A stretch of DNA of 64,000 nucleotides from a virus (taxonomy: Duplodnaviria; Heunggongvirae; Uroviricota; Caudoviricetes): IMG/VR virus record IMGVR_UViG_2597490230_000001, positions 25,917 to 89,916 of that record; one strand, written 5' to 3'. The notes beneath the pieces were generated by a model that searched no databases, was not told where the DNA came from, and saw only the letters and a list, made by a program, of their open reading frames with translations. Made by a program: the position numbers and the translations under genes. This document shows positions 4,578 through 64,000 of this stretch, in pieces (position 1 is the stretch's first letter; every line of letters begins with the position of its first letter).

Positions 4578-4598
4578 TTATTATATGTGGATTTACTG
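4578..4598 (-). promoter_or_regulatory. copy of the conserved promoter-like motif (CAGTAAATCCACATATAATAA) at the convergence point
   Basis: Near-identical to motifs at 32911, 45863, 58205 and 63983. Confidence 0.35.
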
Positions 4599-4599
4599 T

Positions 4600-4935
4600 T
4601 TACTTTTTAGCCACGTAAATGGTCTTTTTAATCTCTTTTGGAACCACTTCGAAGTACTGAGGGTCAGCATATTCCCAATCAGTGAAGTAGCTACCAGAAC
4701 GACCAATCACAACTGAACAGAATACAGTCTTTTCTTTATCAGCGAAGATTGATTCTTGATACTCATACTTTCCTTCGTTAATCCAATCACCCTCTTCGAT
4801 GAGAATAACATCGTCGTCTTTATCCACTTCAACGCAATCATATTCATCATAGGTGTTTTTCAGGAACTCTTCAAGCTGTTCGTAATTCATAAGATTTAAT
4901 CCACTCTTCAATTGTTGGAGGAGAAACTTTTTCAA
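4600..4935 (-). CDS. hypothetical protein
   Basis: 111 aa ORF, last gene of the leftward block. Confidence 0.5.
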   Translation of the reverse strand: MKKFLLQQLKSGLNLMNYEQLEEFLKNTYDEYDCVEVDKDDDVILIEEGDWINEGKYEYQESIFADKEKTVFCSVVIGRSGSYFTDWEYADPQYFEVVPKEIKKTIYVAKK

Positions 4936-5611
4936 TTGCAGCTCTCATTATAGCTGCTCTGTGTAATTTGTCCTGAATCTCAGGAACTTTGACTCTGGTT
5001 TTAGGAACCATAATCGAAACATAAGAACTGTCTGCCGAAGCAAACGGATATTGACTCAAGGCACGAACATCCAAAGCCCTCAAACCATGAATCTTAACAT
5101 CAAACTTGTTCTTAATGTAGATGAAGTCAAATACCTCATCCATACGCTCACGCCAAGCCTTAGAACGAATTGATTTGTGTTTACCCATACAACCTATGGC
5201 AACTCTATCAAAACGCTCACAGAGCCTTCCTAGGCGCTCTAATGAGCCTTCACTATGCCAGACTGGAACAGCCTTACTGATTATTTCTTCGGGGACTTTC
5301 GAGAGGAGTTCGTCGTTTTCCTCATCAGAGCCACCAATAACATCAGGGACAATAAACCAGCTGATACGACCAAAAAGAGAGCTAACCCAGCTATAATACT
5401 TAGACCAGTGCTTGTCCCAATCAACAATTTCACCCTTCCTTGTGGATTTCATCCAAACAGAGAAAGCACCATTGTCAAGAACAAGTTCACAATCTAACTG
5501 AACAATCCTTTTGATTTGGTCTGGTCGATGAAAGGAGACTAGGGCTCCACCTCCACGGTAGAGCGCCTTAATCAACTCATCACCTTCACCGCCCCAAACT
5601 CGGACCTCCAT
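4871..5611 (-). CDS. tRNA-guanine transglycosylase-like protein (putative DpdA-type DNA transglycosylase)
   Basis: VLDNGAFSV resembles the TGT LTDSGGFQV motif; FIVPDVIGG, AIGCMG and IHGLRALD resemble TGT barrel motifs; no Zn subdomain. Confidence 0.4.
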   Translation of the reverse strand: MEVRVWGGEGDELIKALYRGGGALVSFHRPDQIKRIVQLDCELVLDNGAFSVWMKSTRKGEIVDWDKHWSKYYSWVSSLFGRISWFIVPDVIGGSDEENDELLSKVPEEIISKAVPVWHSEGSLERLGRLCERFDRVAIGCMGKHKSIRSKAWRERMDEVFDFIYIKNKFDVKIHGLRALDVRALSQYPFASADSSYVSIMVPKTRVKVPEIQDKLHRAAIMRAAIEKVSPPTIEEWIKSYELRTA

Positions 5612-5817
5612 GAAAGTGTACTGTCAAAACGGTAACTCCTCAAGCTCTTTCTTGACTGCAATGGCTACTGCTTCATCACAAGATGGGCATGACCACATTT
5701 CACCACGCTTTGTTCCGTATCCACTTTCAGCAGCTATTACTGGAACCTTAGCACTACAAGTGCAATTAACATAGCCATCATCGTCTTGTTTTGAAAGGTA
5801 AATCCACAGGCTGTCTT

Positions 5818-6093
5818 TTAGCCATTGACCAATTCCTTCGCCTGTCGCTTAAATGTCTCCAGACCTTCCGTGTCGTCACAGTAGTACAACTCCGCTTCAA
5901 TAAGTGCGTAATGGATAACTTTCAGTAAATACCTTCGATGAAGACCATTCTTATTCTTATGACGAAAGGCATACTTAATCATGTTACACTGTTGGAAATC
6001 CAACTGAGGGTTGGCATGATAGAACTGAATTGGTTGAATTGTGTTGGAACCTTGATAATGAGCCCCACCAACCATAGTGTTTAAAGCACTCAA
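5818..6093 (-). CDS. hypothetical protein
   Basis: 91 aa ORF co-oriented with neighbours. Confidence 0.4.
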   Translation of the reverse strand: MSALNTMVGGAHYQGSNTIQPIQFYHANPQLDFQQCNMIKYAFRHKNKNGLHRRYLLKVIHYALIEAELYYCDDTEGLETFKRQAKELVNG

Positions 6094-6394
6094 GCTTCAA
6101 CCTCCATTGTTTCAATGTAATAGTTATGTTTATGAATACCTAAAGATTCTGCTTTAGCTCTTGCACCTTCTTCTGTGTGGTGCAGACTGCGGACCATAAA
6201 AGCATACTCGCCTTCAACAGACTCTTCTACCATTAATGCGAAAACAACCTGAACCATTATATTACCTCAATGCCCAAGAGATGCCAAGTGCAAATTCTGT
6301 TTGCTTAAGACGTTTGTTAAGACGCCAAGCGTAAATTGTTAATCCGAGGTTGCAAGCAAATGTAACCCCGAATAAGAATTGATAAACTTGTAAC

Positions 6395-6715
6395 TCATTC
6401 ATAAGTAACCTTCAATCTCTTAATTTCAGTGACATTGGGATTTGGTCTTTCATCCCTCATATAAGGCTCCACCATTTGAAACTCATATATTTCACGACCA
6501 AATGGTAATTGAACCGGCTTTTCAAGTTTACGCTGAATTACTGCTGATTCCATCGGACCATTAAAAAGTTCCAACCACTCTGTGAGCCTGTCAATAACTT
6601 CTTGTTGAGCTTTGATTCGATGTTTCATCATTTCATTATCAGCGGATAACTCAATGTTTTTAATCTTTAATTCACGATTCTCTTCGTAAACACCTCTTTC
6701 AGGGTTAGTAAACAT
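6395..6715 (-). CDS. hypothetical protein
   Basis: 106 aa ORF with coiled-coil-like sequence. Confidence 0.5.
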   Translation of the reverse strand: MFTNPERGVYEENRELKIKNIELSADNEMMKHRIKAQQEVIDRLTEWLELFNGPMESAVIQRKLEKPVQLPFGREIYEFQMVEPYMRDERPNPNVTEIKRLKVTYE

Positions 6716-48388: not shown

Positions 48389-48396
48389 TTAGTGAC

Positions 48397-49610: not shown

Positions 49611-49620
49611 CCGAGTTTGT

Positions 49621-51200: not shown

Positions 51201-52043
51201 TTATTTGGAACGACTGTCGAAGATGGTAGAGCCAGCGTAGCCAGCACCCATAACAGTGTTCGGAACGCCACCCTGGTATTTATCAGCAATGGTCTGCTGA
51301 ACATCCAGTTCTTTCCAGCGAATCATCTCAGGTGTGATGGTCTGCTGAAGGGCGCGGTTAGCTTCTGCTTCTTTCTTAGCTGCGTACAGCTTAGCATCAG
51401 CATCACGTTCGTTAGCCTGAGCGGCGTTAGCACGAGACTCTTTTGCTGCCACAGAAGTAACAACTTGCTGTTGAGCAATCTGTTCTTTCTTAGCCAGTTC
51501 AGCTTTCTCTGCGTTCACCTCTTCTTCACGAATCTTGGTGTTGGTCACCTGAGTCATGATAACTTCCGGCAGGGTGATATCCTGCAAGAAGATCTCCTTA
51601 ACGGTATAACCGTAAGGACGGGCGTACGCTTCGATTTCTGCTTTCACAGAATCCTGCAACTGAGCCTGGATTTCAGCGTTGAAAAGGTCTTGCGCCTTGG
51701 GCACAGACTTACCGAACTCACGGACAGTAGAGAGCAATTTCTGCTCTACGTACTTATCCAGAGCCTGCTCCTGAGTACCAGCGTTGATGCGGTTCATTGG
51801 CGCTTTAGAGCCATCAAACTGCAACATGACAGTCATATCCACAGTGGATTTGAACTTGTCCTGGCTAGGAACCTGGAGCTTGTCGTATGAGATTTTAATA
51901 TCCTTCGTGGAGAAGGTATCAAAACTTGCAAACGGGTTCACGATGTGGAAGCCCGGCTTGACAGGTGCAGTGGCGACTTTACCAGAAGGTCTGAGTCTTA
52001 ACCGTACCGTCTTGCACAACGGTGTAGGAGTTGAGGCCAACAA
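51201..52043 (-). CDS. SPFH/band-7 (prohibitin/HflK-like) domain protein; N-terminal TM segment lies in another frame (52120..51980)
   Basis: GYTVKEIFLQDITLPEVI SPFH signature; upstream ORF MSREQDLFKKFKKWGLGGLVAVVALIVGLNSYTVVQDGTV... stops after a frame change. Confidence 0.6.
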   Translation of the reverse strand: MLASTPTPLCKTVRLRLRPSGKVATAPVKPGFHIVNPFASFDTFSTKDIKISYDKLQVPSQDKFKSTVDMTVMLQFDGSKAPMNRINAGTQEQALDKYVEQKLLSTVREFGKSVPKAQDLFNAEIQAQLQDSVKAEIEAYARPYGYTVKEIFLQDITLPEVIMTQVTNTKIREEEVNAEKAELAKKEQIAQQQVVTSVAAKESRANAAQANERDADAKLYAAKKEAEANRALQQTITPEMIRWKELDVQQTIADKYQGGVPNTVMGAGYAGSTIFDSRSK

Positions 52044-52169
52044 TCAGTGCAACGACTGCAACCAGACCACCTAAACCCCACTTCTTAAACTTCTTGAACA
52101 AGTCTTGCTCACGAGACATGGATTAACCTTATCAGTTAGTTGTTGAAACCGGAGCCAACATGACCCCGA

Positions 52170-52196
52170 ACAAACCCTCTCGTAAGAGGGCTTGCG
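52170..52196 (-). terminator. hairpin terminator (ccctc-ttacg-agaggg then T-rich)
   Basis: Downstream of the P-loop gene on the minus strand. Confidence 0.45.
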
Positions 52197-52204
52197 CAGA
52201 GCAC

Positions 52205-53437: not shown

Positions 53438-53482
53438 TACAGTAAAAGTGAATAAGCCCTCTCGAAAGAAGGCTTAAGCAAA

Positions 53483-53671
53483 TTACTGGCCGTTTGTACG
53501 GATTACCAGTGTGCTATCACGTTCTGCCATTTGCAGAGTTTCAACCAATGCAATTGCTGCATTGAGACCTTCCATAGCGAGCCGGTAGCCTTTCTCATAA
53601 GTGGTGGCGGATTGGGCTCCATCACGCTGAGATTTCAGGTGATATAGGGTGGATGGGTTAATGATTGACAC
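53483..53671 (-). CDS. hypothetical protein
   Basis: 62 aa ORF. Confidence 0.4.
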   Translation of the reverse strand: MSIINPSTLYHLKSQRDGAQSATTYEKGYRLAMEGLNAAIALVETLQMAERDSTLVIRTNGQ

Positions 53672-53674
53672 TAA

Positions 53675-53893
53675 CTACCTCACTGAATTATTGATTTCGT
53701 CTACACGGTCACGATGGGTAAGGAAACTTTCTTTAGCTTTATACCAGCTTTCAGTTCCATAATTCCAAATGCCGTAGAATTTTAGAAGATTTCGATAATA
53801 CACCATTTCACGACGGTGAATGACGTATGCCTCACCCATGCTAATAGTGTTACGTTTTATCAACATCCCCTTTGTTTGCCATAAGGTAGTCAT
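53675..53893 (-). CDS. hypothetical protein
   Basis: 72 aa ORF. Confidence 0.4.
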   Translation of the reverse strand: MTTLWQTKGMLIKRNTISMGEAYVIHRREMVYYRNLLKFYGIWNYGTESWYKAKESFLTHRDRVDEINNSVR

Positions 53894-53974
53894 GACTTTC
53901 TACCACAATAACCTTCGACAAATATCCAGATTACAGCACCAACAGCAAGTAGTGCGTAATCAATCCACCAGTAG

Positions 53975-54208
53975 TCAGACATAATAGTGGAACTCCTTGT
54001 TGTGGAAGATAAACTTCTTACCAAGCAAAGTGCCCACTAAGACGGGAGACGTCACAGTAGTTTTAACTTCCAGAACAACCATTGATTCATTTTCAATCTT
54101 CAGTGGCTTGCTCTTCTTTTGCTTCTTTGTCATTGACTGGCTCCGGTAAACAACGTGGGTTGGATTTTGGGAACCAGTGAATGCGACCATCAGATTGGCG
54201 AATGCCAA
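53975..54208 (-). CDS. hypothetical protein
   Basis: 77 aa ORF. Confidence 0.4.
   Translation of the reverse strand: MAFANLMVAFTGSQNPTHVVYRSQSMTKKQKKSKPLKIENESMVVLEVKTTVTSPVLVGTLLGKKFIFHNKEFHYYV
54049..54061 (-). repeat. copy of co-oriented 13-bp motif (ACTACTGTGACGT)
   Basis: Plus strand acgtcacagtagt. Confidence 0.6.
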
Positions 54209-54219
54209 ATCCAGGCAGG

Positions 54220-54639
54220 TTAATCACCTGTTCCAGGTTTGCTGACACCATTGAAACGACCTCGCTTCATAACTCTCGCCTGTTCTGCGAGACGATGTGC
54301 CCTACCTGCTTCTGCTGCTTGTCGTTGTGACTCTTTAACCACACGCAAGGCTTCCTGCTGTAACTTGTTATTCATTCGACGCTGAAGAACCATAATGCAC
54401 TTCTTCAGAATCGCAATCTTAACAGCGTCAGGAATCTTATTGAGTCGCAGGAATTTATCAACGAAAGACTTGGCGTTGTTATATTCTTTACGAACAAAGA
54501 CAACGTTGCTTTCCGTGTAATCCAACAATGGGTCAAGACGTTCAAATGTAACGTCATGCACATCGCTGAATTCTTCGCCTGAGTAGTAGCAAGTTCCATC
54601 ACCTTTTCGGAACAGCTTAACCATCTTCTCAAGGCTCAT
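54220..54639 (-). CDS. HNH-like endonuclease (putative)
   Basis: CYYSGEEF...ERLDP...SNVVFV pattern; start trimmed to an internal Met. Confidence 0.35.
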   Translation of the reverse strand: MSLEKMVKLFRKGDGTCYYSGEEFSDVHDVTFERLDPLLDYTESNVVFVRKEYNNAKSFVDKFLRLNKIPDAVKIAILKKCIMVLQRRMNNKLQQEALRVVKESQRQAAEAGRAHRLAEQARVMKRGRFNGVSKPGTGD

Positions 54640-54712
54640 TTTAACCTTTGGCTCATTGCTTGCACCACGGTCGCAGTTAGCGTATTTGGTGGCAATCAAC
54701 CGGCTGATAGCA

Positions 54713-55027
54713 CTATCGGTCAAAGTCGAGTACAACACTCCCTTTCTCCTCAATCTCAGCCATAACTTTGTTGTACTCTCGAACAGTTCGAACAAGAGCA
54801 GCTTTTGGATTGCTCTGCATTGCTATACCAACAATAACACCCTGTACTTGAATATCAGTACACCAAGTGTTAGTGATTGCAGCAGCACAACCTACTAATT
54901 TCTGTTTGGTACGAGCCTTACGCTTCTCAATTTTGGCAATACGCTCTTCTAATAAAAGAGTCATAATCATTGCCTCAAGAGCGTCCTCATACATCTCTAA
55001 CTTTTTGTCAGGGACAATCATTCGCAT
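54713..55027 (-). CDS. hypothetical protein
   Basis: 104 aa ORF. Confidence 0.45.
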   Translation of the reverse strand: MRMIVPDKKLEMYEDALEAMIMTLLLEERIAKIEKRKARTKQKLVGCAAAITNTWCTDIQVQGVIVGIAMQSNPKAALVRTVREYNKVMAEIEEKGSVVLDFDR

Positions 55028-55263
55028 AAGTCCTATTTTAAAATAGGGAGGCGGGGACGAGCCGCCTTTATCCCTAGAAGCATGTAAGACCTAACAAACC
55101 CTACCCCGTCCGAAGTGAGGGGATACGATTCTAAGGGGCGGTGAATTACCCGGCCTACGTTTCGCATTGTTTAAGTTAGTGTCACCTTTCGGTGACGGTT
55201 AGGTGTCAAGGTTATCTAAGCCTCAACTCAAAGGGCTCTCGAAAGAACCCTTCACGTTGTAGG

Positions 55264-55506
55264 TTAGAACGTGAGTGTAACCTTTGCACTCTTAACAACA
55301 GTGCAGTATACATTATTAACTGGTGCGATTACTTCACCAGTGTCTAAACGCGCCAGCATTGTACGCAATTCGGTATCACTCTTTCTGACGAAGTGGCTCG
55401 ACGTGTTGCTGAGAACAAGATAATGTTCATCATTTATGCAAATAACCTCGCCAGGTTTAACAGTTCCAACTGTTACCTTTTTATGATTCGTAACTTCAAC
55501 TTTCAT
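55264..55506 (-). CDS. hypothetical protein
   Basis: 80 aa ORF. Confidence 0.45.
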   Translation of the reverse strand: MKVEVTNHKKVTVGTVKPGEVICINDEHYLVLSNTSSHFVRKSDTELRTMLARLDTGEVIAPVNNVYCTVVKSAKVTLTF

Positions 55507-55513
55507 TCAACGC

Positions 55514-55526
55514 ACCATCACAGTAG
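55514..55526 (-). repeat. copy of co-oriented 13-bp motif (ACTACTGTGATGG)
   Basis: Plus strand ccatcacagtagt. Confidence 0.55.
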
Positions 55527-55693
55527 TTACTGGAGTTTAGGCTCCGAGTGAAGATTACGAGAAGGCTCATAACGGTCATACGTTTTTGAGCCACCAGACT
55601 GCTTGACACTTGCGAAGCGGTCATGATTGAGCGCCTCGATAATATCTTTACAGAAGAAGTCTTTAATGTGTTTCCACATAAATACCTCAGAAG

Positions 55694-55769
55694 TGGAGGG
55701 TAGCACCCGATTCGAACGGGTGTGATTCGGATTTGCAATCCGATGCCTAAGCCACTCAGCCAGCTACCC
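55694..55769 (-). tRNA. tRNA-Cys (anticodon GCA)
   Basis: Acceptor GGGTAGC/GCTACCC, anticodon stem-loop TCGGA-TTGCAAA-TCCGA, T-arm ACCCGTTCGAATCGGGT, CCA encoded. Confidence 0.6.
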
Positions 55770-55775
55770 TATAAA

Positions 55776-56006
55776 TTATTTCAGGATGATATCAACATCC
55801 AACAGGTGCTTGACCCGCTGAGTACAGGAGAAGTGCTTGAACCCGCCTTCCACATCAACAGCGTTAAAGTTAATCCCACGATGGCTTAGGTCTTTTGAAT
55901 CGTTGACCTTAATGAACACGTTTGAATCAACCTGGAAGTATGACCAAAGGGGCAACTCACTGAAAGTTGCCTTTGCTTTAGTTTTATCAATCACTTTGAT
56001 AGACAT
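55776..56006 (-). CDS. hypothetical protein
   Basis: 76 aa ORF. Confidence 0.45.
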   Translation of the reverse strand: MSIKVIDKTKAKATFSELPLWSYFQVDSNVFIKVNDSKDLSHRGINFNAVDVEGGFKHFSCTQRVKHLLDVDIILK

Positions 56007-56022
56007 GATATCACCCTAGCGA

Positions 56023-56217
56023 TTACTCGCCCTTAGTCAGGCCAGTAGGAAAGCTTTTAGCGCCAGCGCGGTTCATCGCTTTACGTGCGATACGCTGGAG
56101 CTGAGCGCCCAGAACATCAACGCGCTTGTTGGACTTACGCTTGTAACCGTTGCGGGAGGTTGCCGGTTTAGCGAAAACTTTAGAGCTGGAATCTTGTTTC
56201 TTAGCACCTTTAGCCAT
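56023..56217 (-). CDS. small basic hypothetical protein
   Basis: 64 aa, Lys/Arg-rich. Confidence 0.45.
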   Translation of the reverse strand: MAKGAKKQDSSSKVFAKPATSRNGYKRKSNKRVDVLGAQLQRIARKAMNRAGAKSFPTGLTKGE

Positions 56218-56252
56218 TTTGAATCTCTCTTTGTTAGTTTGGTTAATTAAGT

Positions 56253-56335
56253 TGGAGCGGGCATCAGGAGTCGAACCTGAATCAGTTGCGCACCACTGTA
56301 TGCCTACAATGGACTGATAATCCTACATTACCCGC
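56253..56335 (-). tRNA. tRNA-like gene (type II-like length, CCA encoded; anticodon not resolved)
   Basis: Acceptor GCGGGTA/TGCCCGC, T-arm TCAGGTTCGACTCCTGA; internal stem CAGT/ACTG with 8-nt loop. Confidence 0.35.
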
Positions 56336-56340
56336 TGAGG

Positions 56341-56419
56341 TGGGACGACCAAGGATTCGAACCTCGTACTGACTACGTAACAGCGCGCCTTCTGTAGCCA
56401 GCAACTACCTGCATCATCC
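56341..56419 (-). tRNA. tRNA-like gene (possibly Ser-GCU-like; non-canonical)
   Basis: Acceptor GGATGAT/GTCGTCC with G-U pairs, T-arm CGAGGTTCGAATCCTTG, candidate anticodon loop TTGCTGG. Confidence 0.3.
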
Positions 56420-56928
56420 ATCGAGCCCCCTTTCCTTAATACAGAGTAGGGAGAACACTCCGGTCGTTTCGATTATGAAGGCGACTCACCCTTCACGAGC
56501 GCATTGGCGATTAAGCTGCTACTCGGAACGCATTATCATTTGCATTTATCTTTGTGGTCTGTTTCTTAAAACCGCATAGACGCTACGACGATAACGAAAA
56601 CCTTTAAGAACTCTCGTGAGAACTCTTAGAGCTTTTCGTTGCCGCCTGTATCGTAGACGGCACACGCCCTATCAAGGGAAGCATTCTTAGTTCGAGTCAC
56701 ATTCTCGGTTAAATTTACTGCTTCGGACTAGCTCGGATAGATTTCATAGTTTCTTTTCCGGATTCGCGGCGGTTAATGGGCGATGCCGAGTTTTGTTAGA
56801 GCAGGTTTTCTCGGAAACTGCTTGTTATGGCGTTTGTTAACCCAGTTATCTCTGGAAGGCTTGTACCGTCAACCCCTATTGGCGAGGTGAGATTGATAGT
56901 CTCATAGGGGCTGGCAGGTGGCGTCCGA

Positions 56929-57108
56929 TTACACCAACTGAGTCCCGAAAGGACGGGTTTGCTCAATCATGTTGATGTTACGGACAATGCCGCGAAGAAT
57001 AACCGCTTCAGATTTCAGAGCACCATTGCTGATGCTTTCCATCTTGGAAGGGCGATTCATACGCTTTTCAGCGTTACGGCGGAATGCTTTGGTGTTACGA
57101 GAATTCAT
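56929..57108 (-). CDS. small basic hypothetical protein
   Basis: ORF trimmed to a Met preceded by AAGGAAG. Confidence 0.35.
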   Translation of the reverse strand: MNSRNTKAFRRNAEKRMNRPSKMESISNGALKSEAVILRGIVRNINMIEQTRPFGTQLV

Positions 57109-57227
57109 TAATGTCTTCCTTAATTTGCATGAGGAGAGTTTCTTTAGATACGGCACAACCCGTACCATTACAAGCGGTGCATGTCCATTCATTGAATGAC
57201 ATATCACCAGGTTCAGCGTCGTTGCAA

Positions 57228-57545
57228 CTACCGCCCCCGTAACAAACGGGACACTTCATGTCCTCGACGTGGCGCTTTAAGTTCCGGTAAAAGCCTGTAG
57301 GCTGAGGCATTGAATCGTGCTCCTGTGAAGATAAGACCTTCACCAGAACACTGATATGGCGTCAGGTCAGTTGATTTGAAGAACATTTCACGAGCAAAAG
57401 CTCGGAACTTACTCATCAAACTGTGCATCGTATCATAACGATGTTGGCAGATACTGAGCTTATAGAACTGGCCATTACATTTGAAGTAAAGAGCATCACG
57501 GTCTTTATCCAATGCTTTCTTATATACGGTAACGATAAGAGCCAT
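57228..57545 (-). CDS. hypothetical protein
   Basis: Start chosen at MALIVTVYKK after GGAG; ATGA overlap with the upstream gene. Confidence 0.45.
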   Translation of the reverse strand: MALIVTVYKKALDKDRDALYFKCNGQFYKLSICQHRYDTMHSLMSKFRAFAREMFFKSTDLTPYQCSGEGLIFTGARFNASAYRLLPELKAPRRGHEVSRLLRGR

Positions 57546-57546
57546 T

Positions 57547-57828
57547 TTATTTTCTCCAGACCGGTTTGACTTTACCAGGGTTAAACCATATCCATCTTTT
57601 TGAAATGATTCCGGCATATGGACCACCTTCGGGGAGCTTACGATAACCTTTCCACCAGACACGCTTGAGATAACCATCAGCGTCTAACTCACCGATACGA
57701 ACATAGCCACGCTTAGTAGCATAACGTTTTGCAGTGAGCAGGTTATGTCTGACGTAAACCACTTCGTTTTTCTTAGTCATAATGACATAAGTTTCAGCGG
57801 GGAATTTGAGCACTGAGTCAGCCGTCAT
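57547..57828 (-). CDS. hypothetical protein
   Basis: 93 aa ORF; its start codon lies inside a variant copy of the 13-bp repeat. Confidence 0.5.
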   Translation of the reverse strand: MTADSVLKFPAETYVIMTKKNEVVYVRHNLLTAKRYATKRGYVRIGELDADGYLKRVWWKGYRKLPEGGPYAGIISKRWIWFNPGKVKPVWRK

Positions 57829-57834
57829 AGTAGT
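57822..57834 (-). repeat. variant copy of 13-bp motif (ACTACTATGACGG), overlapping a start codon
   Basis: Plus strand ccgtcatagtagt. Confidence 0.45.
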
Positions 57835-58196
57835 TAAGCCTTTTCTAAGAGCTTGTCGCTCTCACGTTTAAATTCTTCAATCAAACCATCATCAGGTTGG
57901 ATTGGTAAAAGATTTTCTTCTGCAACAAACGCATAACCTTCTGGTAAATCGACCACAACCATCGGGTTGTGATAACCATCTTTCCGTATCAACCAGAGGT
58001 TTTTACCAGAAAGATTTAAGTTATAGGTTGTGTCTGGGAAGATTACACAAGAGCCACGCCATACACCATCTTCATCAGCATCTACAACAGCCATACGCTG
58101 AACAAGTAAGACAGTTCTACCTACCAAATGTTTCTTTCCGTGATTAGTACGAGCACCAATCACAAGAGCATTCTCACCAGGAATTAAACCTTTCAC
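57834..58196 (-). CDS. hypothetical protein (GTG start)
   Basis: 120 aa; AAGGAG RBS 8 nt upstream; promoter-like motif just upstream. Confidence 0.5.
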   Translation of the reverse strand: MKGLIPGENALVIGARTNHGKKHLVGRTVLLVQRMAVVDADEDGVWRGSCVIFPDTTYNLNLSGKNLWLIRKDGYHNPMVVVDLPEGYAFVAEENLLPIQPDDGLIEEFKRESDKLLEKA

Positions 58197-58204
58197 AGTG
58201 AACT

Positions 58205-58227
58205 CCTTATTATATGTGGATTAACTG
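58205..58227 (-). promoter_or_regulatory. conserved promoter-like motif CAGTTAATCCACATATAATAAGGAG (contains a perfect TATAAT)
   Basis: Directly upstream of the RBS of 57834..58196. Confidence 0.45.
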
Positions 58228-58526
58228 ACTAATAAATACTCAGAGAATACTCATTAGTGAGTTGCCAGTCTCTTCCTGGCAGTCAAACCTAATCGGTGTC
58301 ATAGCGGTTAACTATGTATGCGAGGGAAATCTCCATGTGGGAGCAAAACCTCCACCTAACTCATTCATTCCTGTTCCAACGTGCTCGGCCAAAGGAGGAG
58401 ACCTTATCTGTACAACGAGTTGGTAGACTCACAGAGGGCTACATTGGGGAACTGTCCCATCTCAGGGAATTGACGATGAGCTGCCGCCTTCAGCAACGCA
58501 GACTAGCGTCTACAGCAGTGTTATTT

Positions 58527-58682
58527 CTCGGTCAGATACTTAATATCTGCCAGGATTTTGAATTGTTGCCCACAGTGAGTGCAGGTAACACGAATCTGGT
58601 CGAACTGACGTACACGATATGCAATCGTCCACGGTGTAACTTCTTTCTTACCCTCGCAATGAGGACAAGTAACAAACATCTT
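58527..58682 (-). CDS. small Zn-ribbon protein (51 aa; not in the ORF track)
   Basis: MFVTCPHCEGKKEV...VTCTHCGQQF with two CxxC pairs. Confidence 0.4.
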
Positions 58683-58962
58683 ATCCACTTTTGATTACCT
58701 CTGTTTTAAATGTGTAGTCTGCACGAATATTGAATTCGGTTTCGCAGCCAGAGCATTTACGTTTAATGGGAGCGCCAGCCTTAACAAGACCAGAGACGCT
58801 ATCAGACAAATTACCCCGTGTACCACACACGGGGCAAAAGAAAGCATTTTTGAAAATATCCATGCTACCAACCACGGATAGTGTTGTTACGGCGTACAGA
58901 GTACTCTTCTTCACGCAGACGGCGAAGGTTTTCGCTAATCTGTTGTGTTTCAGATTTCTCAT
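58681..58962 (-). CDS. Zn-ribbon hypothetical protein
   Basis: CPVCG...CSGCE motifs. Confidence 0.45.
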   Translation of the reverse strand: MRNLKHNRLAKTFAVCVKKSTLYAVTTLSVVGSMDIFKNAFFCPVCGTRGNLSDSVSGLVKAGAPIKRKCSGCETEFNIRADYTFKTEVIKSG

Positions 58963-59028
58963 TCTTCTTATTCAGAAGACGCTCACGACGGTCTAAGTCA
59001 CGCTCAGTCTGTCCGATAACAGCAGGTT

Positions 59029-59406
59029 TCATTTCTTTGGTATCCATCTTCTCTGTTGGAAATTAATGCTCCGAGCATACAGTGCCAAGTGATTAGCACG
59101 ATTGGCGATTACTTCAAGCGGGATGTCACCCTGCTCAAGCCCGGCGTCACAGTAGTACTTCTGGTGCAGACAAACACCCATCGCATATTCTCGACGGTTC
59201 TGCCAGATAGTAAAGAAGTCGTCCAACATCTCATCACTGAATTTGATGTATGGGTCAGACTTCATTCGGTTGATTGCCTCCGGTGATAGAGGCAACGGAG
59301 AGTGAGGCTTCATTGTGTGCTCATACAAGTCACACATCATAGGCTTCACTGCTTTGTAATTCTCGTACTGCTCAGGGGTGAAGTGCGTTATCTCTGCCCG
59401 TACCAT
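59029..59406 (-). CDS. hypothetical protein
   Basis: 125 aa ORF. Confidence 0.5.
   Translation of the reverse strand: MVRAEITHFTPEQYENYKAVKPMMCDLYEHTMKPHSPLPLSPEAINRMKSDPYIKFSDEMLDDFFTIWQNRREYAMGVCLHQKYYCDAGLEQGDIPLEVIANRANHLALYARSINFQQRRWIPKK
59144..59156 (-). repeat. copy of co-oriented 13-bp motif (ACTACTGTGACGC)
   Basis: Plus strand gcgtcacagtagt. Confidence 0.6.
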
Positions 59407-59773
59407 TTAGAACCTTCGCTTTATTAGCCTCACCTACAACATAATACGAACCCCAGAGAGGTGTATAAATCTTGCAAGACTGAGAAGGGTTATCGACACA
59501 ACCTGTTTGCACATCAGCGAGTTTGAGGATATCGACTAACGTCTTTTCCTCAGTTTCTCTCGCACCCATCTCGACAGCTTCAAGATAGCTATCGAAAACA
59601 ACATCAAGACAAGTATCAGAATCGCCTTGAGAAGAAGCATCACACACCACCTTAGCGTCGTCGTTCATTTCGTCAACGAGTGCTTGCGGCAGAAACAGGT
59701 CAGCTTCATGTGCAAGCGCAGGAGCTGGATGACAAGCAGTCATCAGCAGGATTACCAATAAACGTTTCATCAT
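59372..59773 (-). CDS. secreted or lipoprotein-like hypothetical protein
   Basis: Signal peptide MMKRLLVILLMTAC with Cys near the cleavage site. Confidence 0.5.
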   Translation of the reverse strand: MMKRLLVILLMTACHPAPALAHEADLFLPQALVDEMNDDAKVVCDASSQGDSDTCLDVVFDSYLEAVEMGARETEEKTLVDILKLADVQTGCVDNPSQSCKIYTPLWGSYYVVGEANKAKVLNGTGRDNALHP

Positions 59774-60012
59774 TTGATAACCTCTAAAGATTTGATACTA
59801 CGGGCTTCAACTGCCCCATCAGACCACTTAACCCACACACGCTGGATGTTTCCGGTGAACGCTGTAATGGTTCCGAACACCTGCTGGGTTGGTCGTGCAT
59901 AGCGATAAAGCACTTTCTTATTTAACAGCACTTCACGCTGTACCTGACTAACAGGTGCGCCGTTGTTGTTATCGAGAGAGGCTTTTAATAATTGGAAAGC
60001 TGATTGACGCAT
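59770..60012 (-). CDS. hypothetical protein
   Basis: 80 aa ORF. Confidence 0.45.
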   Translation of the reverse strand: MRQSAFQLLKASLDNNNGAPVSQVQREVLLNKKVLYRYARPTQQVFGTITAFTGNIQRVWVKWSDGAVEARSIKSLEVIK

Positions 60013-60101
60013 GATTTACATCCCCAAAGCTGCGGCAAATAACAGGCCGCCGAACACACCAGTGGCGCACAATGCAACCACACCAGATACAACAGAACGC
60101 G

Positions 60102-60114
60102 CCGTCACAGTAGT
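60102..60114 (-). repeat. copy of co-oriented 13-bp motif (ACTACTGTGACGG)
   Basis: Plus strand ccgtcacagtagt. Confidence 0.6.
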
Positions 60115-60140
60115 ATTACGAGTTGCCATGAGTGAGCACC

Positions 60141-60503
60141 TTAACCATTGCATATGGGTTGATGGAAGTAATGTCGCCAGTTTCCAGAACTTTGGCACGA
60201 ACTTCGGAGAAATACACCCCTCCATTTTCGTAGGATTAAAAACGTTTCAGAATTGAAGTTGTTCTTATCATCTACCATACGAACAACATCATTCACATCA
60301 AGTGCGCCAGCTTCTACTGGTTCAACTACCTGAGTAGGTAGGAATTCGCACGCTGCATACGGCGGGAACTTAACCATACGCTTAGAATCTTCGTCGATAG
60401 CCAGTACATTGTCATACTCGCCATACATACGGATGCACACGAACACCGCGCCGTTTGATTTAAAACGTTCGCCGATATTCAATTCAAACATTTCTTTACG
60501 CAT
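60141..60503 (-). CDS. hypothetical protein
   Basis: 120 aa ORF. Confidence 0.5.
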   Translation of the reverse strand: MRKEMFELNIGERFKSNGAVFVCIRMYGEYDNVLAIDEDSKRMVKFPPYAACEFLPTQVVEPVEAGALDVNDVVRMVDDKNNFNSETFLILRKWRGVFLRSSCQSSGNWRHYFHQPICNG

Positions 60504-60505
60504 GG

Positions 60506-60694
60506 TTAACTCCAGATATCACGTTTAACATGGATGTTAATTTGTGGCTTGCTACCAAACAGAGCCACACGAATTGCAGGCCACAAGGCAAGAATCAGGA
60601 AAACGCTTGCCAACATGTTGCCACCCATGAGCCAGAAGAAGGCAGCCAGGAACAGGAACAGTACGGACAGAACAACAGTCAGAAACGTTTTCAT
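60506..60694 (-). CDS. small membrane protein
   Basis: 62 aa with two TM helices. Confidence 0.5.
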   Translation of the reverse strand: MKTFLTVVLSVLFLFLAAFFWLMGGNMLASVFLILALWPAIRVALFGSKPQINIHVKRDIWS

Positions 60695-60696
60695 AA

Positions 60697-61410
60697 TTAA
60701 CCCTTAAACAGGTTCCAGTGGATACGCAAAGCTTCCACATCTAATTTGACACGGTGTGCTTTGAGTCCATTACCCTCATACAGAGCCGCATAAGGGTGAT
60801 TACATTTAAAGTGAACCGTCAAAGTATCAGGATTGATACTCATCAGGTGGTTGTCAAACAACAGGTGCAAATCAGCACTCATGAGAATGCCGTTTGAAGT
60901 GTTGTTGTTCTTATCATCTGCAAACGGGCTAATATGAGCAGCTTGCAGGCACTGAGTAACATTGTGGCCAGTGATTGCACACGAGCCACCGAAATTCATT
61001 GATACACGATTGCGGAAGTCAGACTGACCAGTACGAACTTCAACAGTGCGCTGAACAGTAGAACCTTTGCGCTCAACAGGGGCAGCCGTCACAGTAGTTT
61101 GTGACTCTACTCTACGTGCAGGAGCTGGACGCTGAGGGTGATACGTCACTGTTTCAGCTGTTGCCCTTGCCTCTGCTTCCATTCTAGCCTGTCGACGACG
61201 CTCTTTAGCACTACCTTTGTGTGAGATTTCATTCAGGCGTTTAGCTTGTCCAGCCATTAACTCAGCAATGATAGCATCTTGTTCTTCCTTAGTGGATGAA
61301 CTAACCTCTTCCGTTGTTTCGAAAGATTTAGATACTAGCTTAGAAGCTCCCTTAAACTGGACTCTTACTGGTTTATTTTTGCCTGAATAAATCATGGTTA
61401 GAAACCCCAC
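60697..61410 (-). CDS. HNH endonuclease (HNH_2-type) with N-terminal extension
   Basis: C-terminal GGSCAITGHN...CLQAAHISPF...NGILMSADLHLLFD motif. Confidence 0.65.
   Translation of the reverse strand: MGFLTMIYSGKNKPVRVQFKGASKLVSKSFETTEEVSSSTKEEQDAIIAELMAGQAKRLNEISHKGSAKERRRQARMEAEARATAETVTYHPQRPAPARRVESQTTVTAAPVERKGSTVQRTVEVRTGQSDFRNRVSMNFGGSCAITGHNVTQCLQAAHISPFADDKNNNTSNGILMSADLHLLFDNHLMSINPDTLTVHFKCNHPYAALYEGNGLKAHRVKLDVEALRIHWNLFKG
61086..61098 (-). repeat. copy of co-oriented 13-bp motif (ACTACTGTGACGG)
   Basis: Plus strand ccgtcacagtagt. Confidence 0.6.
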
Positions 61411-61607
61411 ACGTTATTTGTGTAACTCACACCTGTAGGCCGTGACGTGTCCGCCATTGACCTATCGTGTGCTTTCTTGATGTTAGCCTTGAGTTGTTTT
61501 CTCTCAGCCTGTAGACGTTTGTAGAGCTTTTTGCTCTTGACACGCGGAACACAGCGGCCTTTACACTTTTGAAGATGTTCGAGGTCGTTCCACGTTTTAC
61601 TAGCCAT
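61398..61607 (-). CDS. small basic hypothetical protein
   Basis: Start ATG overlaps the stop of the upstream gene (ATGGCTAG). Confidence 0.4.
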   Translation of the reverse strand: MASKTWNDLEHLQKCKGRCVPRVKSKKLYKRLQAERKQLKANIKKAHDRSMADTSRPTGVSYTNNVWGF

Positions 61608-61960
61608 GACGTAAACCTTTAGCGTGTTTAGTGCCAGCTTTACGTGCCTTATGAATGCGAGGCTCTTTCTTTTTCGCATTCTTGCGTGGCTTTTCTGCCT
61701 TAGCAGCGAGCATAGCAGGTGTGTAGGTACGCTCATCACCCAGCTTAATTGTTTCACCTGACACTTTGGTCTTGAAGCCGTGTTGACTCACCTGGTAGTG
61801 CAGACACTTACGCTTACGACCGTCTAAGAGTTTTGTAGTCAGTTCACTGGCACTCTTACGACCTCCTATCGGCGAAAGGGCTTGCTTGCGTTTAGGCTGG
61901 CGAGATTTACCCTTTGGTTTGACTGCGTAGATTGACGCATTCATGATGAATTGAACAGAC
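61600..61960 (-). CDS. basic hypothetical protein
   Basis: Lys/Arg-rich; start trimmed to MSVQFIMNAS. Confidence 0.45.
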
Positions 61961-62112
61961 ATACTAACCCCTTTGTCAGTTAAATGGTGTGGCAATTGAG
62001 GGACTGCCACCAACCTATCGTCATTGGAAGCTACTTACGCACTAATCGGGCGCTAACCGAACCTACGCGCTGGCTTATGCCTACCTTTCCCGCGCTACGT
62101 TGCAAGGGGGAA

Positions 62113-62125
62113 CCGTCACAGTAGT
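62113..62125 (-). repeat. copy of co-oriented 13-bp motif (ACTACTGTGACGG), intergenic
   Basis: Plus strand ccgtcacagtagt. Confidence 0.6.
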
Positions 62126-62130
62126 GACAC

Positions 62131-62259
62131 CTATCCCTTAGATGAACAGGCTTGCTACAATCATTGCAGCGATAATCAATCCGGCAAACTTTGCCCAGAA
62201 TGCTGTCACGCCTTCATGAATGTCAATATCACCGTATTCAACGGTGTACTTGTTACGCT
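62131..62259 (-). CDS. small hydrophobic membrane peptide (42 aa; not in the ORF track)
   Basis: MKRNKYTVEYGDIDIHEGVTAFWAKFAGLIIAAMIVASLFI preceded by AGGAG. Confidence 0.35.
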
Positions 62260-62329
62260 TCATAACATTACTCCTGTCGTCAGTGAATTTAATAAAGCCC
62301 CTGCTATCAGAGGCTTGATAATCCCACTG

Positions 62330-62947
62330 TTACGCCGCTTTCTTTTCTGCTTTGTTGCGCAGTTCACGGACGTTATCAGCTGCAAACATATCGCTAACAG
62401 CTTTCAGTGCCATATTACGCAGCACGTCGATGTTAGCGCCGCTATCAATCGCAGCCTGGATTTGAGACTGGATAGAGGTACGGATTGCTTTTGCAGACTT
62501 ATCCATGTCGTAGGATTTTTCAGTACGCGCCACGGTCTTTTTATCGTGCAGCAGAGAAGTATGCTCCGCTTCGATGAAAGACTTAACAAAGGTACGGAAA
62601 GCAACCTTTTCTTCTTTCGTGGTCGCAACTTCGCCTTTTTCGGCGTTCGGTTTCCAGTTAACCACGGTGTAAGCCTTCTCTTTCTTATCAGCGGACGTGT
62701 TGTCTTTGTCCAGCTTGATAGTCAGTTTAGCCATACGCGGCAGCAGGTCATTAATGACCGCCTTTTGTAACTGAGGGAAACGCTTGATAGCGTTCACGAA
62801 AAATTCAATGTTGGCCGGGTTACAGGAGTCTTTGCCCCAATAATCAGACACAACTACTTCGAAAGACTTAACCAGACCACGGGAACCTTCACGGAAATTC
62901 TTGACGGATTCCAGAATCAGAGTTTGGGTAGCATTCAGTTTAGCCAT
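62330..62947 (-). CDS. hypothetical early protein (first gene of the leftward block)
   Basis: ORF 62330..62971; likely start at MAKLNATQ. Confidence 0.5.
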   Translation of the reverse strand: MAKLNATQTLILESVKNFREGSRGLVKSFEVVVSDYWGKDSCNPANIEFFVNAIKRFPQLQKAVINDLLPRMAKLTIKLDKDNTSADKKEKAYTVVNWKPNAEKGEVATTKEEKVAFRTFVKSFIEAEHTSLLHDKKTVARTEKSYDMDKSAKAIRTSIQSQIQAAIDSGANIDVLRNMALKAVSDMFAADNVRELRNKAEKKAA

Positions 62948-63982
62948 GATAACACCTCGATAATTAACCATTTAGTTTGAAGGAAGCAACGCGCTTCGGT
63001 GGATAGACCTCGCCTCATAAGATTTAAGGTCTACCCGAAACACACTACAACCAGCCGCCGGAGAGTCCAGGAGCTGGAAGGTAGAACTCTAGCCGGTATT
63101 AGCTAGACCGGCAACGCTCGATAGCTACGCCCATCACTGAATGGGGAAACAGCCCGGAGCCGTTCGACGCTATCAATTTTGCTTATCTTTCCTCAAAGCA
63201 GGACGCACCGCGCTACCAGTGCAATTTCTTTCCCCTTTATACTCCCGACAATTAGCAATTGAGCCAGTGCTATTTGATTCAGGGGAACGCCTCACACACA
63301 AAAGGCAGCGTGATAATCAAATCACCGCCGCGCTATTGTTTAACGTGGTATCGTTGTTCCCCGTTGTCGCATTCTTTGCTTAACGCTTTCGGGAGTTAGT
63401 CGCAATTAGTAGACAAATCCATGCCTAGCTATTGCTTTCACCTTTCGGCTTTTGCATCACGGTTTTACCCATACGGACTATTCTATTTATCCGTTACCCA
63501 AAAACATTGCGGCGCTTACTATCGAGTCATAATGACCGGATAATGTTTCCGACTTTGATAAAACCAGTCTCTACTTTGGTGACAACCTTACTACGCTAAA
63601 CTAGCCGTTTCATAATGACTCGCAAGGCATTGCGTTTTAAATCACCGTTTCGACTCCCCTCCCAATCCGTGAAGATTGGCGAGGATAGGAATCAAGTGCT
63701 TCCATCTTGGGAGGATTGGTATCAGACTTCACCGCACCGCCGTATAAGTTTCGCCCTTGTCGTGGTTTAATATCATCTACATTTCAGGGTAGATACTCAC
63801 AATGAAGCGGGGAAAATATCCATGCTTCTGTTTTCTTTGCCTATGGCTGGCTAGTCTTGCGACTTTTACGAGGTACGGTCTTGCCGTCGAAAGATATTAC
63901 TATCTTTACATAGCCATTGTGAGTGGCGACTCGTTAGCGGTACTGCTACCATTACCCGCTAATATATTGCTCAAATTTTATA

Positions 63983-64000
63983 CAGTAAATCCACATATAA
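63983..64000 (+). promoter_or_regulatory. rightward-oriented copy of the promoter-like motif (CAGTAAATCCACATATAA, cut by window end)
   Basis: Same motif as the four minus-oriented copies but on the + strand, at the right edge of a 1 kb ORF-free region. Confidence 0.4.

Follow-up and report, generated by a model that had tools for sequence, protein, structure and literature searches.

The window analyzed here, the final 64 kb of Salmonella phage 7-11 (HM997019; 89,916 bp), contained a motif of 21 to 25 bp, which occurred in 7-11 as five repeats and one degenerate variant. The 21-mer CAGTWAATCCACATAWWATAA had four exact matches on the minus strand, at positions 4578 to 4598, 32912 to 32932, 45864 to 45884, and 58207 to 58227, bearing out the four near-identical minus-strand copies of the first-pass annotation, whose coordinates were off by 0 to 2 nt. 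No match to CAGTWAATCCACATAWWATAA was found in 100 shuffled controls (expected number, 0, versus five copies seen). A PWM scan of the whole genome (89,916 bp) gave only five strong matches, at 37 to 43 bits, and the runner-up scored 5.5 bits, leaving a gap of 32 bits.

The full copy at 58202 to 58227 (minus strand; exact match and PWM), with its purine tract CAGTTAATCCACATATAATAAGGAGT, was located at the end of an immediate-early block of ~12 genes, 10 nt ahead of the GTG start codon of gene 139 (57834 to 58196), and had syntenic counterparts in phages pSal-SNUABM-01 (SNUABM-01; position 83564) and PKM.Lu.22.1 (PKM.Lu; 76210). In the full copy CAGTAAATCCACATAATATAAGAGGT at 45859 to 45884 (minus strand; exact match and PWM), which had a syntenic counterpart in SNUABM-01 (71372), the TAA was the stop codon of gene 115, and the ATG of gene 114 lay 12 nt downstream of the 21-mer. 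The full copy CAGTAAATCCACATAATATAAAGGAAC at 32906 to 32932 (minus strand; exact match and PWM), upstream of gene 94 (32318 to 32896), was matched ahead of the gene 94 homologs in SNUABM-01, PKM.Lu (57262), and A24 (50591). The remaining full minus-strand copy (4572 to 4598; exact match) was located past the last leftward gene, gene 31, with no ORF downstream; SNUABM-01 shared it, as did PKM.Lu despite an unrelated upstream flank. Three of the copies had been placed 10 to 20 nt upstream of the RBS and start codon, which held for the start codons, 10 to 15 nt past the 21-mer, and not for the RBS, which the 21-mer directly adjoined.

The fifth copy, at 63983 to 64000 on the plus strand (PWM), was cut by the end of the window and record and was completed by record bases 1 to 3. 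With the end of HM997019 joined to its start, this copy read CAGTAAATCCACATATAA followed across the junction by TAAGAG, and in phages SE131 and SeKF_80 the same sequence ran uninterrupted at 100% identity. The copy was directed rightward and faced the validated early sigma-70 promoters (record positions 101 to 129 and 196 to 222), and the divergent regions of SNUABM-01, PKM.Lu, A24, and Privateer likewise contained a plus-strand copy. The weaker rightward variant proposed earlier, ACAGAAAATCCACATAAAAGG at 49341 to 49361 (plus strand), was present inside a strongly conserved 340-nt noncoding gap; it lacked the A/T run, and its ungapped PWM score was only 1.2 bits. Spacings between the copies were 28.3, 13.0, 12.3, and 5.8 kb, so the division into blocks of about 13 kb suggested by the first-pass annotation applied to two intervals and failed for the others.

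All 24 copies examined, namely, those of 7-11, SNUABM-01, PKM.Lu, A24, and Privateer, were noncoding or overlapped only the upstream stop codon, and all minus-strand copies were co-oriented with the flanking genes. The motif consisted, in order, of a lineage-specific half, CACAT, 6 to 8 bp of A/T only, and a purine tract that was the RBS of the next gene. The box was fixed, the A/T positions that followed it varied in both sequence and length, and the purine tract was retained even at copies without an ORF. This combination agrees with a box that is followed by a melting region and a start site; antisense pairing fits it poorly, since pairing would need uniform conservation and the A/T part varies.

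The motif occupied syntenic sites in the same orientation in SNUABM-01 and in the distant PKM.Lu, with diverged flanks, and a multicopy motif was found in 15 distinct phages (22 database records). Cronobacter and Proteus relatives contained a sister version beginning with TTATTGCACAT in the same layout; the change from AATCCACAT to TTATTGCACAT between the lineages left three to four leftward copies and one rightward copy in place. Such concerted change is the pattern of promoters coevolving with a specific reader. In A24, ECO319P1, GAP52, and Privateer, one copy was located 1.4 to 1.7 kb upstream of the sigma gene, a position that would allow gp47-independent expression of the late sigma factor.

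A dispersed mobile repeat, which had been raised as a counterexplanation, was rejected: similarity between copies ended at the motif, their flanks were unrelated and had no target duplications, and the orthologous positions were fixed across phages. A remnant of such a repeat, a set of site-specific nicks, or packaging or recombination sites together constitute a highly improbable explanation. Low-copy, strand-specific motifs of ~20 bp mark the nicks of phiKMV-like phages, and a 9-bp consensus marks those of tf-like phages (PMC3517423); in addition, the GenBank record was opened inside one copy, and “novel end types” were reported from PhageTerm for Privateer by its authors. The CACAT motif, however, is linked, as nick sites are not, to the interval separating stop codon from RBS, and 7-11 has a natural nick candidate in a separate 10-copy repeat, ACTACTGTGACG, which contains the exact tf nick sequence TACTGTGAC.

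The motif fitted neither known promoter class of 7-11. Experimentally defined promoters of the phage sigma factor gp47 follow GTAAtg-N16-aCTA and lie upstream of genes 1, 8, 12, 16, 22, 28, 48, and 69 (PMC8948821). Our genome scan recovered N16 plus ACTA sites upstream of all eight genes, yet none of the gp47 sites coincided with a motif copy, and four of the five copies lacked the bipartite consensus with its strict 16-bp spacer and ACTA; these results spoke against the earlier idea that the encoded sigma factor reads the motif. The similarity to gp47 promoters consisted of GTAAAT at the start of the motif, which resembles the −35 element GTAAtg, and of a single copy (record position 58846) that read GTAAAT-N17-ACTA, whereas the PKM.Lu copies had GTTAAT. 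As for host sigma-70, the perfect TATAAT already noticed in the 58.2-kb copy was present in the 4578 and junction copies as well, and the remaining two copies in 7-11 had TAATAT. Against sigma-70, consensus scans called no motif copy, no −35 hexamer was found at 16 to 18 bp, where the bases were unconserved between copies, and the A/T run was preceded by CA, never by TG. TAnnnT was present in 21 of the 24 copies and missing at PKM.Lu positions 57257 and 33998 and A24 position 29451. Furthermore, a start 7 nt past the hexamer would be located within the RBS or beyond it, leaving mRNAs with no usable leader. Host sigma-70 alone is unlikely on the −35, CA, and TAnnnT observations, and a promoter read by either known holoenzyme, gp47 or sigma-70 alone, appears quite unlikely. 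Between 44 and 64 kb of the window, 13 sigma-70-like sites were found, versus 25.6 ± 4.6 in shuffled sequence, with no strong one on the minus strand.

It is also very unlikely that the motif is a DNA-binding site other than a promoter, such as a weak host DnaA box or a phage regulator's operator or roadblock. Apart from position 2, the 9-mer TAWTNCACA agrees with the DnaA consensus TTWTNCACA, the only differences between the lineage versions TAATCCACA and TATTGCACA fall at the two positions where that consensus is degenerate, and the A24 control region contained five perfect DnaA boxes. Nevertheless, position 2 was A in all 24 copies, with the consensus T never used; position 1 was a mismatched A in most 7-11 copies; and the conserved bases continued past the 9-mer on both sides. 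The relaxed 9-mer was not overrepresented outside the full motif (17 found, ~13 expected), and no homolog of DnaA domain IV was encoded. An operator, for its part, needs no fixed orientation, whereas the motif was asymmetric and always pointed with the genes.

On balance, and with moderate confidence, we read the motif as the core of a candidate third class of promoters in 7-11 and its family, the Grimontviridae, a class that is probably distinct from the sigma-70 early and gp47 late promoters. The phage-specific promoters of the first-pass annotation were thus the best-supported reading, the copies being intergenic, co-oriented, syntenic, subject to concerted change, and promoter-like in build. 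An upstream half of ~12 nt, which reads AGTWAATC in the Salmonella lineage and TAATTATTG in that of Cronobacter/Proteus, would confer specificity next to the invariant CACAT; the 6 to 8 bp of A/T would be the melting stretch; and transcription would start in the purine tract (AAGAG/AAGG), so that the new mRNA would begin at the RBS of the next gene. Along the very long cluster of leftward genes, the four leftward copies would restart transcription where the immediate-early block ends, ahead of gene 114, ahead of gene 94, and at one orphan unit. From the divergent control region, the rightward copy would fire in opposition to the early promoters. Transcripts beginning at an RBS are unusual, which counts against the promoter reading, and the orphan copy beside a terminator has no obvious promoter purpose unless a short RNA made there is functional.

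The reader of such promoters would probably be host RNA polymerase guided by a candidate phage-encoded factor. No second sigma factor or gp79 homolog was found by phmmer, and comparison of the immediate-early proteins with Pfam and PHROGs gave nothing informative. That the factor belongs outside the sigma-70 family, which would make this a true middle class in the Grimontviridae, is a tentative and rather unlikely proposal.

The proposed class resembles three known promoter systems in part. phiEco32 is a related podophage with the same genome plan as 7-11, and its gp36-dependent middle/late promoters have the consensus tAATGTAtA (Pavlova et al. 2012, as presented in PMC8948821). As that presentation has it, they form a handful per genome (six in phiEco32), consist of a single element with no −35, and have start sites 6 to 8 nt downstream, to which the position of the purine tract can be likened. 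The elements of both phages end in the pattern Y-R-Y-A-T-A (TGTATA in phiEco32 and CACATA in 7-11), but the 7-11 copies read CCACATA or GCACAT(A/T) and not TAATGTATA. Sites of the gp36 type (TAATGTATA) are absent from all of 7-11 (PMC8948821), and the phiEco32 genome, which contained five exact TAATGTATA sites, lacked the CACAT motif. For gp47, the gp36 homolog of 7-11, recognition of a different promoter, bipartite in build, has been demonstrated, and the leaders of phiEco32 are 25 to 40 nt long, whereas the 7-11 element abuts the RBS.

Promoters of the T7-group RNA polymerases are likewise asymmetric (~23 bp), with a specificity region, A/T melting region, and purine start (TATA-GGGAGA versus ATAATA-AGAG in 7-11); they occupy tight gene junctions and show concerted change between related phages, and phiOL and phiOR are orphan promoters, few in number and with no downstream gene, near genome ends or control regions. 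The A/T part of the 7-11 motif is longer, however, and variable in length, and no single-subunit RNA polymerase was annotated in 7-11, SNUABM-01, PKM.Lu, A24, or Privateer; for these reasons we claim a resemblance in design and not membership in the T7 type. In the middle promoters of T4 (MotA box plus sigma-70 −10, with AsiA), a phage box replaces the −35 beside an A/T-rich −10-like region; similarly, host polymerase with early phage proteins would read the 7-11 motif, in a class between early and late. The MotA box, in contrast, lies ~12 bp upstream of the −10, whereas the 7-11 box touches the A/T region, in which TAnnnT is not always present, and no MotA or AsiA homolog was detected.

Stable hairpins preceded two of the copies. 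The 8-bp-stem hairpin already noted before the 32.9-kb copy, CTGTACAA-aga-TTGTACAG at 32930 to 32948 (minus strand), was confirmed by folding (−8.0 kcal/mol; z = −2.9); the CAG of the motif comes from its 3′ arm, and the hairpin was identical in SNUABM-01 and absent in PKM.Lu. A 14-bp A/U-rich hairpin at 58224 to 58262 (minus strand; −14.1 kcal/mol; z = −4.4) ended in the CAGU of the 58.2-kb copy. Upstream of it, at 58263 to 58281 (minus strand), comparison and folding identified the conserved hairpin TGCCAG-GAAGAGA-CTGGCA, in which two pairs were changed on both sides in PKM.Lu (GTCTG/CAGAC). At the left end of the gene cluster, a bidirectional intrinsic terminator (4508 to 4531; prediction and record annotation) separated the convergent clusters, ~45 to 70 nt downstream of the 4578 copy. 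With the terminator so close, an RNA from this copy would be ~70 nt long, and the long antisense RNA suggested by the first-pass annotation is not expected. The putative product (4503 to 4577, minus strand; −21.9 kcal/mol; z = −4.05) would be an ORF-less transcript comprising the purine tract, a 5′ hairpin (AAGGGAACUA/UGGUUUUCUU), and the intrinsic terminator.

Hairpins directly before two copies also fit an RNA processing site with a protected 3′ end, and the motif may act in RNA, controlling the processing, stability, or translation of a long polycistronic early RNA; this reading, the principal alternative, we consider unlikely overall. The AU-rich single-stranded part would be cut or bound, giving an upstream piece with a 3′ hairpin and a downstream piece starting at the RBS, in keeping with the location of the motif exactly between stop codon and RBS. 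Among the proteins encoded by 7-11 are one that resembles Srd, which in T4 stimulates RNase E, and one with a ProQ/FinO domain. The validated early leftward RNAs cross the junction copy in antisense (primer s70_P151_2,3_pe, record positions 43 to 62), and this copy in the early leader might pair with the motif. For two of the four copies, however, such duplexes would be interrupted after ~15 bp, because the A/T stretch varies between copies. No phage endoribonuclease was identified, and to our knowledge host RNases have no need for, or known use of, a 14-nt invariant single-stranded sequence. The plus-strand copy, although the best conserved in every lineage, had no predicted rightward promoter upstream and so cannot act as a sense RNA element, and cleavage at the orphan copy would detach a stabilizing terminator from the mRNA. 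RNase III sites of the T7 early RNA similarly occur several times between genes of a long polycistronic RNA, just before an RBS and with hairpins near, but those sites are themselves long irregular hairpins, whereas the 7-11 motif is not self-complementary and one copy is in a nontranscribed orientation.

Phage 7-11 is one of few phiEco32-like phages with experimentally studied transcription, and neither of two papers on that transcription described the motif. In the current model, two sigma-70 early promoters produce transcripts over almost half of the genome, and eight gp47 promoters serve the late genes. Lavysh et al. validated only two early promoters, postulated an undefined antitermination mechanism, and described only early and late kinetics, with no middle class reported, which counts against the promoter reading; none of their primers was positioned to detect starts at the motif copies. 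The need for antitermination and the first expression of the sigma gene were left without explanation by the 7-11 authors, and family-wide internal promoter-like elements could fill both gaps. In particular, the copy at the end of the immediate-early block and the copy upstream of the sigma operon in four relatives could add a middle class. If its reader were a factor outside the sigma-70 family, the class would activate the late sigma gene and oppose the early promoters face to face, the ~70-nt orphan RNA might work with the ProQ/FinO-like protein, and the two-class model published for 7-11 would be incorrect. The factor and its promoters would then form a new pair of orthogonal specificity, and so short and highly specific a pair would be a useful orthogonal expression tool.

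Separately, the localized nick site of the tf/LUZ24 type (5′-TACT/RTGMC-3′, one strand) was rejected as an identity for the CACAT motif, in which its consensus does not occur. The nick-site sequence of phage tf was nonetheless present in ten copies in 7-11, each within the repeat described above; if these are nick sites of the tf type, localized nicks, a phenomenon still poorly understood, would extend to a family of enterobacterial phages.

The sequence is that of Salmonella phage 7-11: window positions 30000-50000 were 100% identical to HM997019/NC_015938 (89,916 bp) by megablast, record position minus 25,916 gives window position, and the window end coincides with the record end. Genes 1-30 of 7-11 form a rightward structural cluster, and the other 121 (31-151) form a leftward one. 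The clusters meet at a convergent bidirectional terminator and diverge from ~2.8 kb of non-coding DNA across the record ends. An Rfam scan of the window returned tRNA-Cys only. The four minus-strand copies of a promoter-like motif described in the first-pass annotation were recovered as exact matches to CAGTWAATCCACATAWWATAA at window positions 4578, 32912, 45864, and 58207, with none in 100 shuffled sequences. The plus-strand copy at 63983 was also present; it is cut by the window end and, read over the record junction, consists of CAGTAAATCCACATATAA followed by TAAGAG, a joined 34-mer that is contiguous and 100% identical in phages SE131 and SeKF_80. When a position weight matrix built from Salmonella-type copies was scanned over the whole 7-11 genome, five full copies scored 37-43 bits and the next best site 5.5 bits, indicating that 7-11 has exactly five copies and none in the 26 kb outside the window. 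The proposed ~13-kb regularity held only in part (spacings of 28.3, 13.0, 12.3, and 5.8 kb), and the copy flanks shared no similarity, so the motif is not a dispersed mobile repeat. The exact motif pattern occurred in 19 IMG/VR contigs, and these matches are attributed to chance because there was one match per contig and related phages were absent among them. The weaker rightward variant at 49341 exists but lacks the A/T run of the full motif. Genes 121 and 120 are separated there by 340 nt of non-coding DNA (window 49282-49620), in which >60 nt around the variant are almost identical between 7-11 and phage pSal-SNUABM-01 (SNUABM-01), whereas the flanking proteins are only 82-84% identical; a hairpin in this gap, AGACGCC-CCGAT-GGCGTCT, has a different stem sequence in SNUABM-01.

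Comparison with relatives confirmed the observation and extended it to the whole phage family. In SNUABM-01 (82% identity), all six sites were found at syntenic positions with unchanged orientation. The far more distant PKM.Lu.22.1 (PKM.Lu) has four motif sites: one on the plus strand in the divergent region, one following the ~12-gene immediate-early block, one ahead of the gene 94 homolog, and one past the last leftward gene, before the bidirectional terminator. The motif forms an island of identity in alignments, and the upstream flanks of the terminal site are unrelated between 7-11 and PKM.Lu. Cronobacter phage A24 has no Salmonella-type box; repeated 12-mer counting revealed its own version, (G/A)TAATTATTGCACATTATAATAAGAG, of which four copies point leftward and one, in the divergent region, rightward. 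Proteus phage Privateer has the version AAAACTACAAATAATTATTGCACATAATATA(TA)AGG, with three copies pointing leftward and one rightward. In total, BLAST searches with both versions identified 15 distinct phages (22 database records) with multiple copies per genome: the Salmonella type in 7-11, SE131, SeKF_80, pSal-SNUABM-01, PKM.Lu.22.1, and PKM.Hi.22.6, and the TTATTGCACAT type in A24, ECO319P1, GAP52, 3H10_20, Privateer, P59, J3S, YP1, and CsaP_009. There was no motif copy in phiEco32 and, by exact 12-mer counting, no equivalent motif in Aeromonas phage LAh_8; L034, a metagenomic relative of gp151, had strong sigma-70 promoters and no motif.

Alignment of 24 family copies on ACATA (the ACAT of CACAT and the base after it) divided the motif into an upstream half, constant inside a lineage and different between lineages; CACAT; 6 to 8 positions, numbered from the end of ACATA, that are A or T in every copy and vary in sequence and length; and a purine tract (AAGAG, AAGGAG, or AAAGG). 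Wherever a gene follows, the purine tract provides its Shine-Dalgarno sequence and the start codon comes 5-9 nt later; copies with no open reading frame (ORF) downstream keep the tract too, and in the plus-strand copy it reads AAGRGAY in all four lineages. Often the TAA of the upstream half doubles as stop codon for the gene before it (7-11 45864; A24 64367, 50591, and 35833), and all 24 copies are non-coding or overlap coding sequence only at that stop codon. With its invariant box, its A/T run of free sequence, and the purines at its presumed start, the motif has the same look as single-element promoters of the T7 group and of phiEco32 gp36, at which transcription starts 6-8 nt past the element; neither antisense pairing nor a peptide motif would leave such a pattern. 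On this anatomy and on comparative genomics, a promoter is the most economical reading, and we incline slightly toward one that is recognized by something other than the two known holoenzymes of 7-11 infection. The earlier suggestion of phage-specific promoters stands as the best reading; the motif itself fits neither the consensus of gp47, the 7-11 sigma factor, nor that of sigma-70.

The published gp47 consensus, GTAAtg-N16-aCTA, precedes genes 1, 8, 12, 16, 22, 28, 48, and 69 (Lavysh et al. 2022, PMC8948821). A scan with GTAANN-N15-17-NCTA recovered N16 + ACTA sites before all eight of these genes, and among the motif copies only that at record 58846 fitted, loosely and with N17, so that by sequence the motif is not a gp47 promoter. 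Host sigma-70 alone is likewise disfavored: no motif copy was flagged in a sigma-70 consensus scan because the -35 hexamer is absent, the bases preceding the A/T run are CA rather than TG, TAnnnT is missing from 3 of the 24 copies, and a start 7 nt past the hexamer would land inside or beyond the ribosome-binding site (RBS). It is improbable that the motif is read by either of these two known holoenzymes. Sigma-70-like sites were depleted in the early region (window 44001-64000; 13 versus 25.6 +/- 4.6 in shuffled sequences) and enriched in the adjacent 24-44 kb (39 versus 27.3 +/- 4.8). Three more perfect gp47-consensus matches (GTAAGN-N16-ACTA), all intergenic and outside the eight published promoters, were found on the minus strand upstream of gene 77 (dCTP deaminase; window 26289, record 52205) and of gene 122 (ProQ-like; window 51081, record 76997), and on the plus strand at record 1369, a second site upstream of gene 1.

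In the published transcription study, the sigma-70 early promoters that were validated numbered just two, both upstream of gene 151, MEME returned no over-represented motif, and the authors concluded that there are no middle promoters; they found no promoter from which the sigma gene could first be expressed and considered antitermination “that remains to be defined” very probable, because early transcripts would need to span nearly half the genome (Lavysh et al. 2022, PMC8948821). The TGATGT-type motifs predicted by Guzina and Djordjevic (2015, PMC4331800) are unrelated to the present motif, which neither paper mentions, and a full-text literature search with the motif strings returned unrelated primer sequences only. 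Starts at the motif copies would be undetectable with the published primers (PMC8948821) at every copy. The sigma gene of A24, ECO319P1, GAP52, and Privateer is preceded at a distance of 1.4-1.7 kb by one copy, before the gene 49 homolog, and this copy would give sigma-independent expression of the late sigma.

Searches for the reader singled out no protein. Pfam and PHROGs searches of the immediate-early and copy-adjacent proteins gave nothing decisive; the matches were an HNH domain, weak zinc-ribbon hits, an Srd-like “sigma-70 decoy”, a D5-like regulator also present in phiEco32, and a ProQ/FinO domain. No paralogs of phiEco32 gp36 and gp79 or of 7-11 gp47 were found by phmmer in all six-frame ORFs, hence no second sigma and no gp79 homolog, and phyletic profiles of leftward ORFs over five phages indicated no candidate. 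The gp151 protein had only four homologs, and its AlphaFold model (pLDDT 54) was unusable. The ProQ/FinO domain belongs to gene 122 (window 50263-50967, minus strand; PF04352, E = 4e-9, above the curated cut-off), which is conserved in SNUABM-01, PKM.Lu, and A24; a ProQ-like chaperone is annotated in LAh_8 too. Gene 122 and its relatives suggest RNA-based regulation in these phages.

The main rival to a promoter is an RNA processing or regulatory site. At the 58.2-kb and 32.9-kb copies, stable hairpins end within the opening bases of the motif, the Srd-like and ProQ/FinO-domain proteins are encoded by the phage, and the antisense of the motif is carried in the early leader; the P151-2,3 primer lies at record 43-62, so the validated early RNAs traverse the junction copy leftward, in antisense. 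The strong sequence invariance of the motif, its variable A/T stretch, and the existence of the plus-strand copy argue against an RNA site. No rightward promoter was predicted upstream of the plus-strand copy, which therefore cannot act as a sense RNA element. That copy faces the validated early promoters, whose starts are ~95 and ~190 nt away, and no plus-strand terminator follows within 1.8 kb; together with the first leftward copy it brackets the immediate-early block in both 7-11 and PKM.Lu. 5' hairpins that would sequester the purine tract were predicted for six of eight ORF-less copies, but they were mostly weak with non-significant z-scores and are only suggestive. The ~300-nt non-coding gap from the immediate-early block to the 58.2-kb copy contains three to four consecutive hairpins (window 58228-58360, minus strand), which are conserved in SNUABM-01 and PKM.Lu, with 11 predicted pairs preserved by changes in both partners; the gap may encode a structured RNA, e.g., an antiterminator, stabilizer, or attenuator.

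For the terminal copy at 4578, transcription antisense to the genes for the endonuclease and the spanins had been raised as one option. Only ~50 nt and a terminator lie beyond this copy in 7-11, SNUABM-01, and PKM.Lu. The RNA predicted from it in 7-11 would be ~70 nt long and would fold into one hairpin at the 5' end and the terminator hairpin (-21.9 kcal/mol, z = -4.05), and so would not be antisense to those genes. The counterparts in A24 and Privateer precede real genes, with leaders of ~55-125 nt. Pairing of the short orphan RNA with the motif or RBS at other copies is possible in 7-11 and was rejected as not conserved in PKM.Lu.

Both lineage boxes match TAWTNCACA, one base off the DnaA consensus, which raised the rival reading of a DnaA-like site; however, position 2 is A in all 24 copies, no enrichment of the relaxed 9-mer was seen outside the motif, and the DnaA boxes that A24 uses are perfect. 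A search with E. coli DnaA domain IV found no homolog. A perfect DnaA box, TTATCCACA, is present on the minus strand at window 44814-44822 (record 70730-70738), in the gap that follows the leftward cluster's internal terminator; SNUABM-01 has kept it. Five perfect DnaA boxes lie within A24 record 1-230, the first two inside a segment (bases 4-127) of which the record end is a ~125-bp copy, taken from sequence as a putative direct terminal repeat.

A nick site is an unlikely reading of the motif, because another repeat, ACTACTGTGACG, fits nick sites. The latter occurs 10 times in 7-11 against ~0.1 expected, at window 62125, 61098, 60114, 59156, 54061, 50004, 31177, 14589, and 5885 on the minus strand and at record 13087, outside the window, on the plus strand. 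Every copy is on the sense strand of the surrounding genes, and the copies fall in each of the three reading frames as well as between genes. The repeat includes TACTGTGAC, which mapping experiments identified as the major nick sequence in Pseudomonas phage tf (consensus TACT/RTGMC; PMC3517423). The repeat has the same sequence in PKM.Lu and SNUABM-01 and variants (ACTACGGTGAC) in A24 and LAh_8; phiEco32 has no repeat of this type. These copies predict localized single-strand nicks in 7-11-like virion DNA.

The HM997019 record itself opens within the junction motif copy, with CACATATAA at window 64000 joined to TAAGAG at record 1. An arbitrary cut would land in any motif copy with a chance of ~0.1%; the record start may be a physical end, an assembly break, or a coincidence. 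For Privateer, “novel end types” were reported by its authors from PhageTerm.
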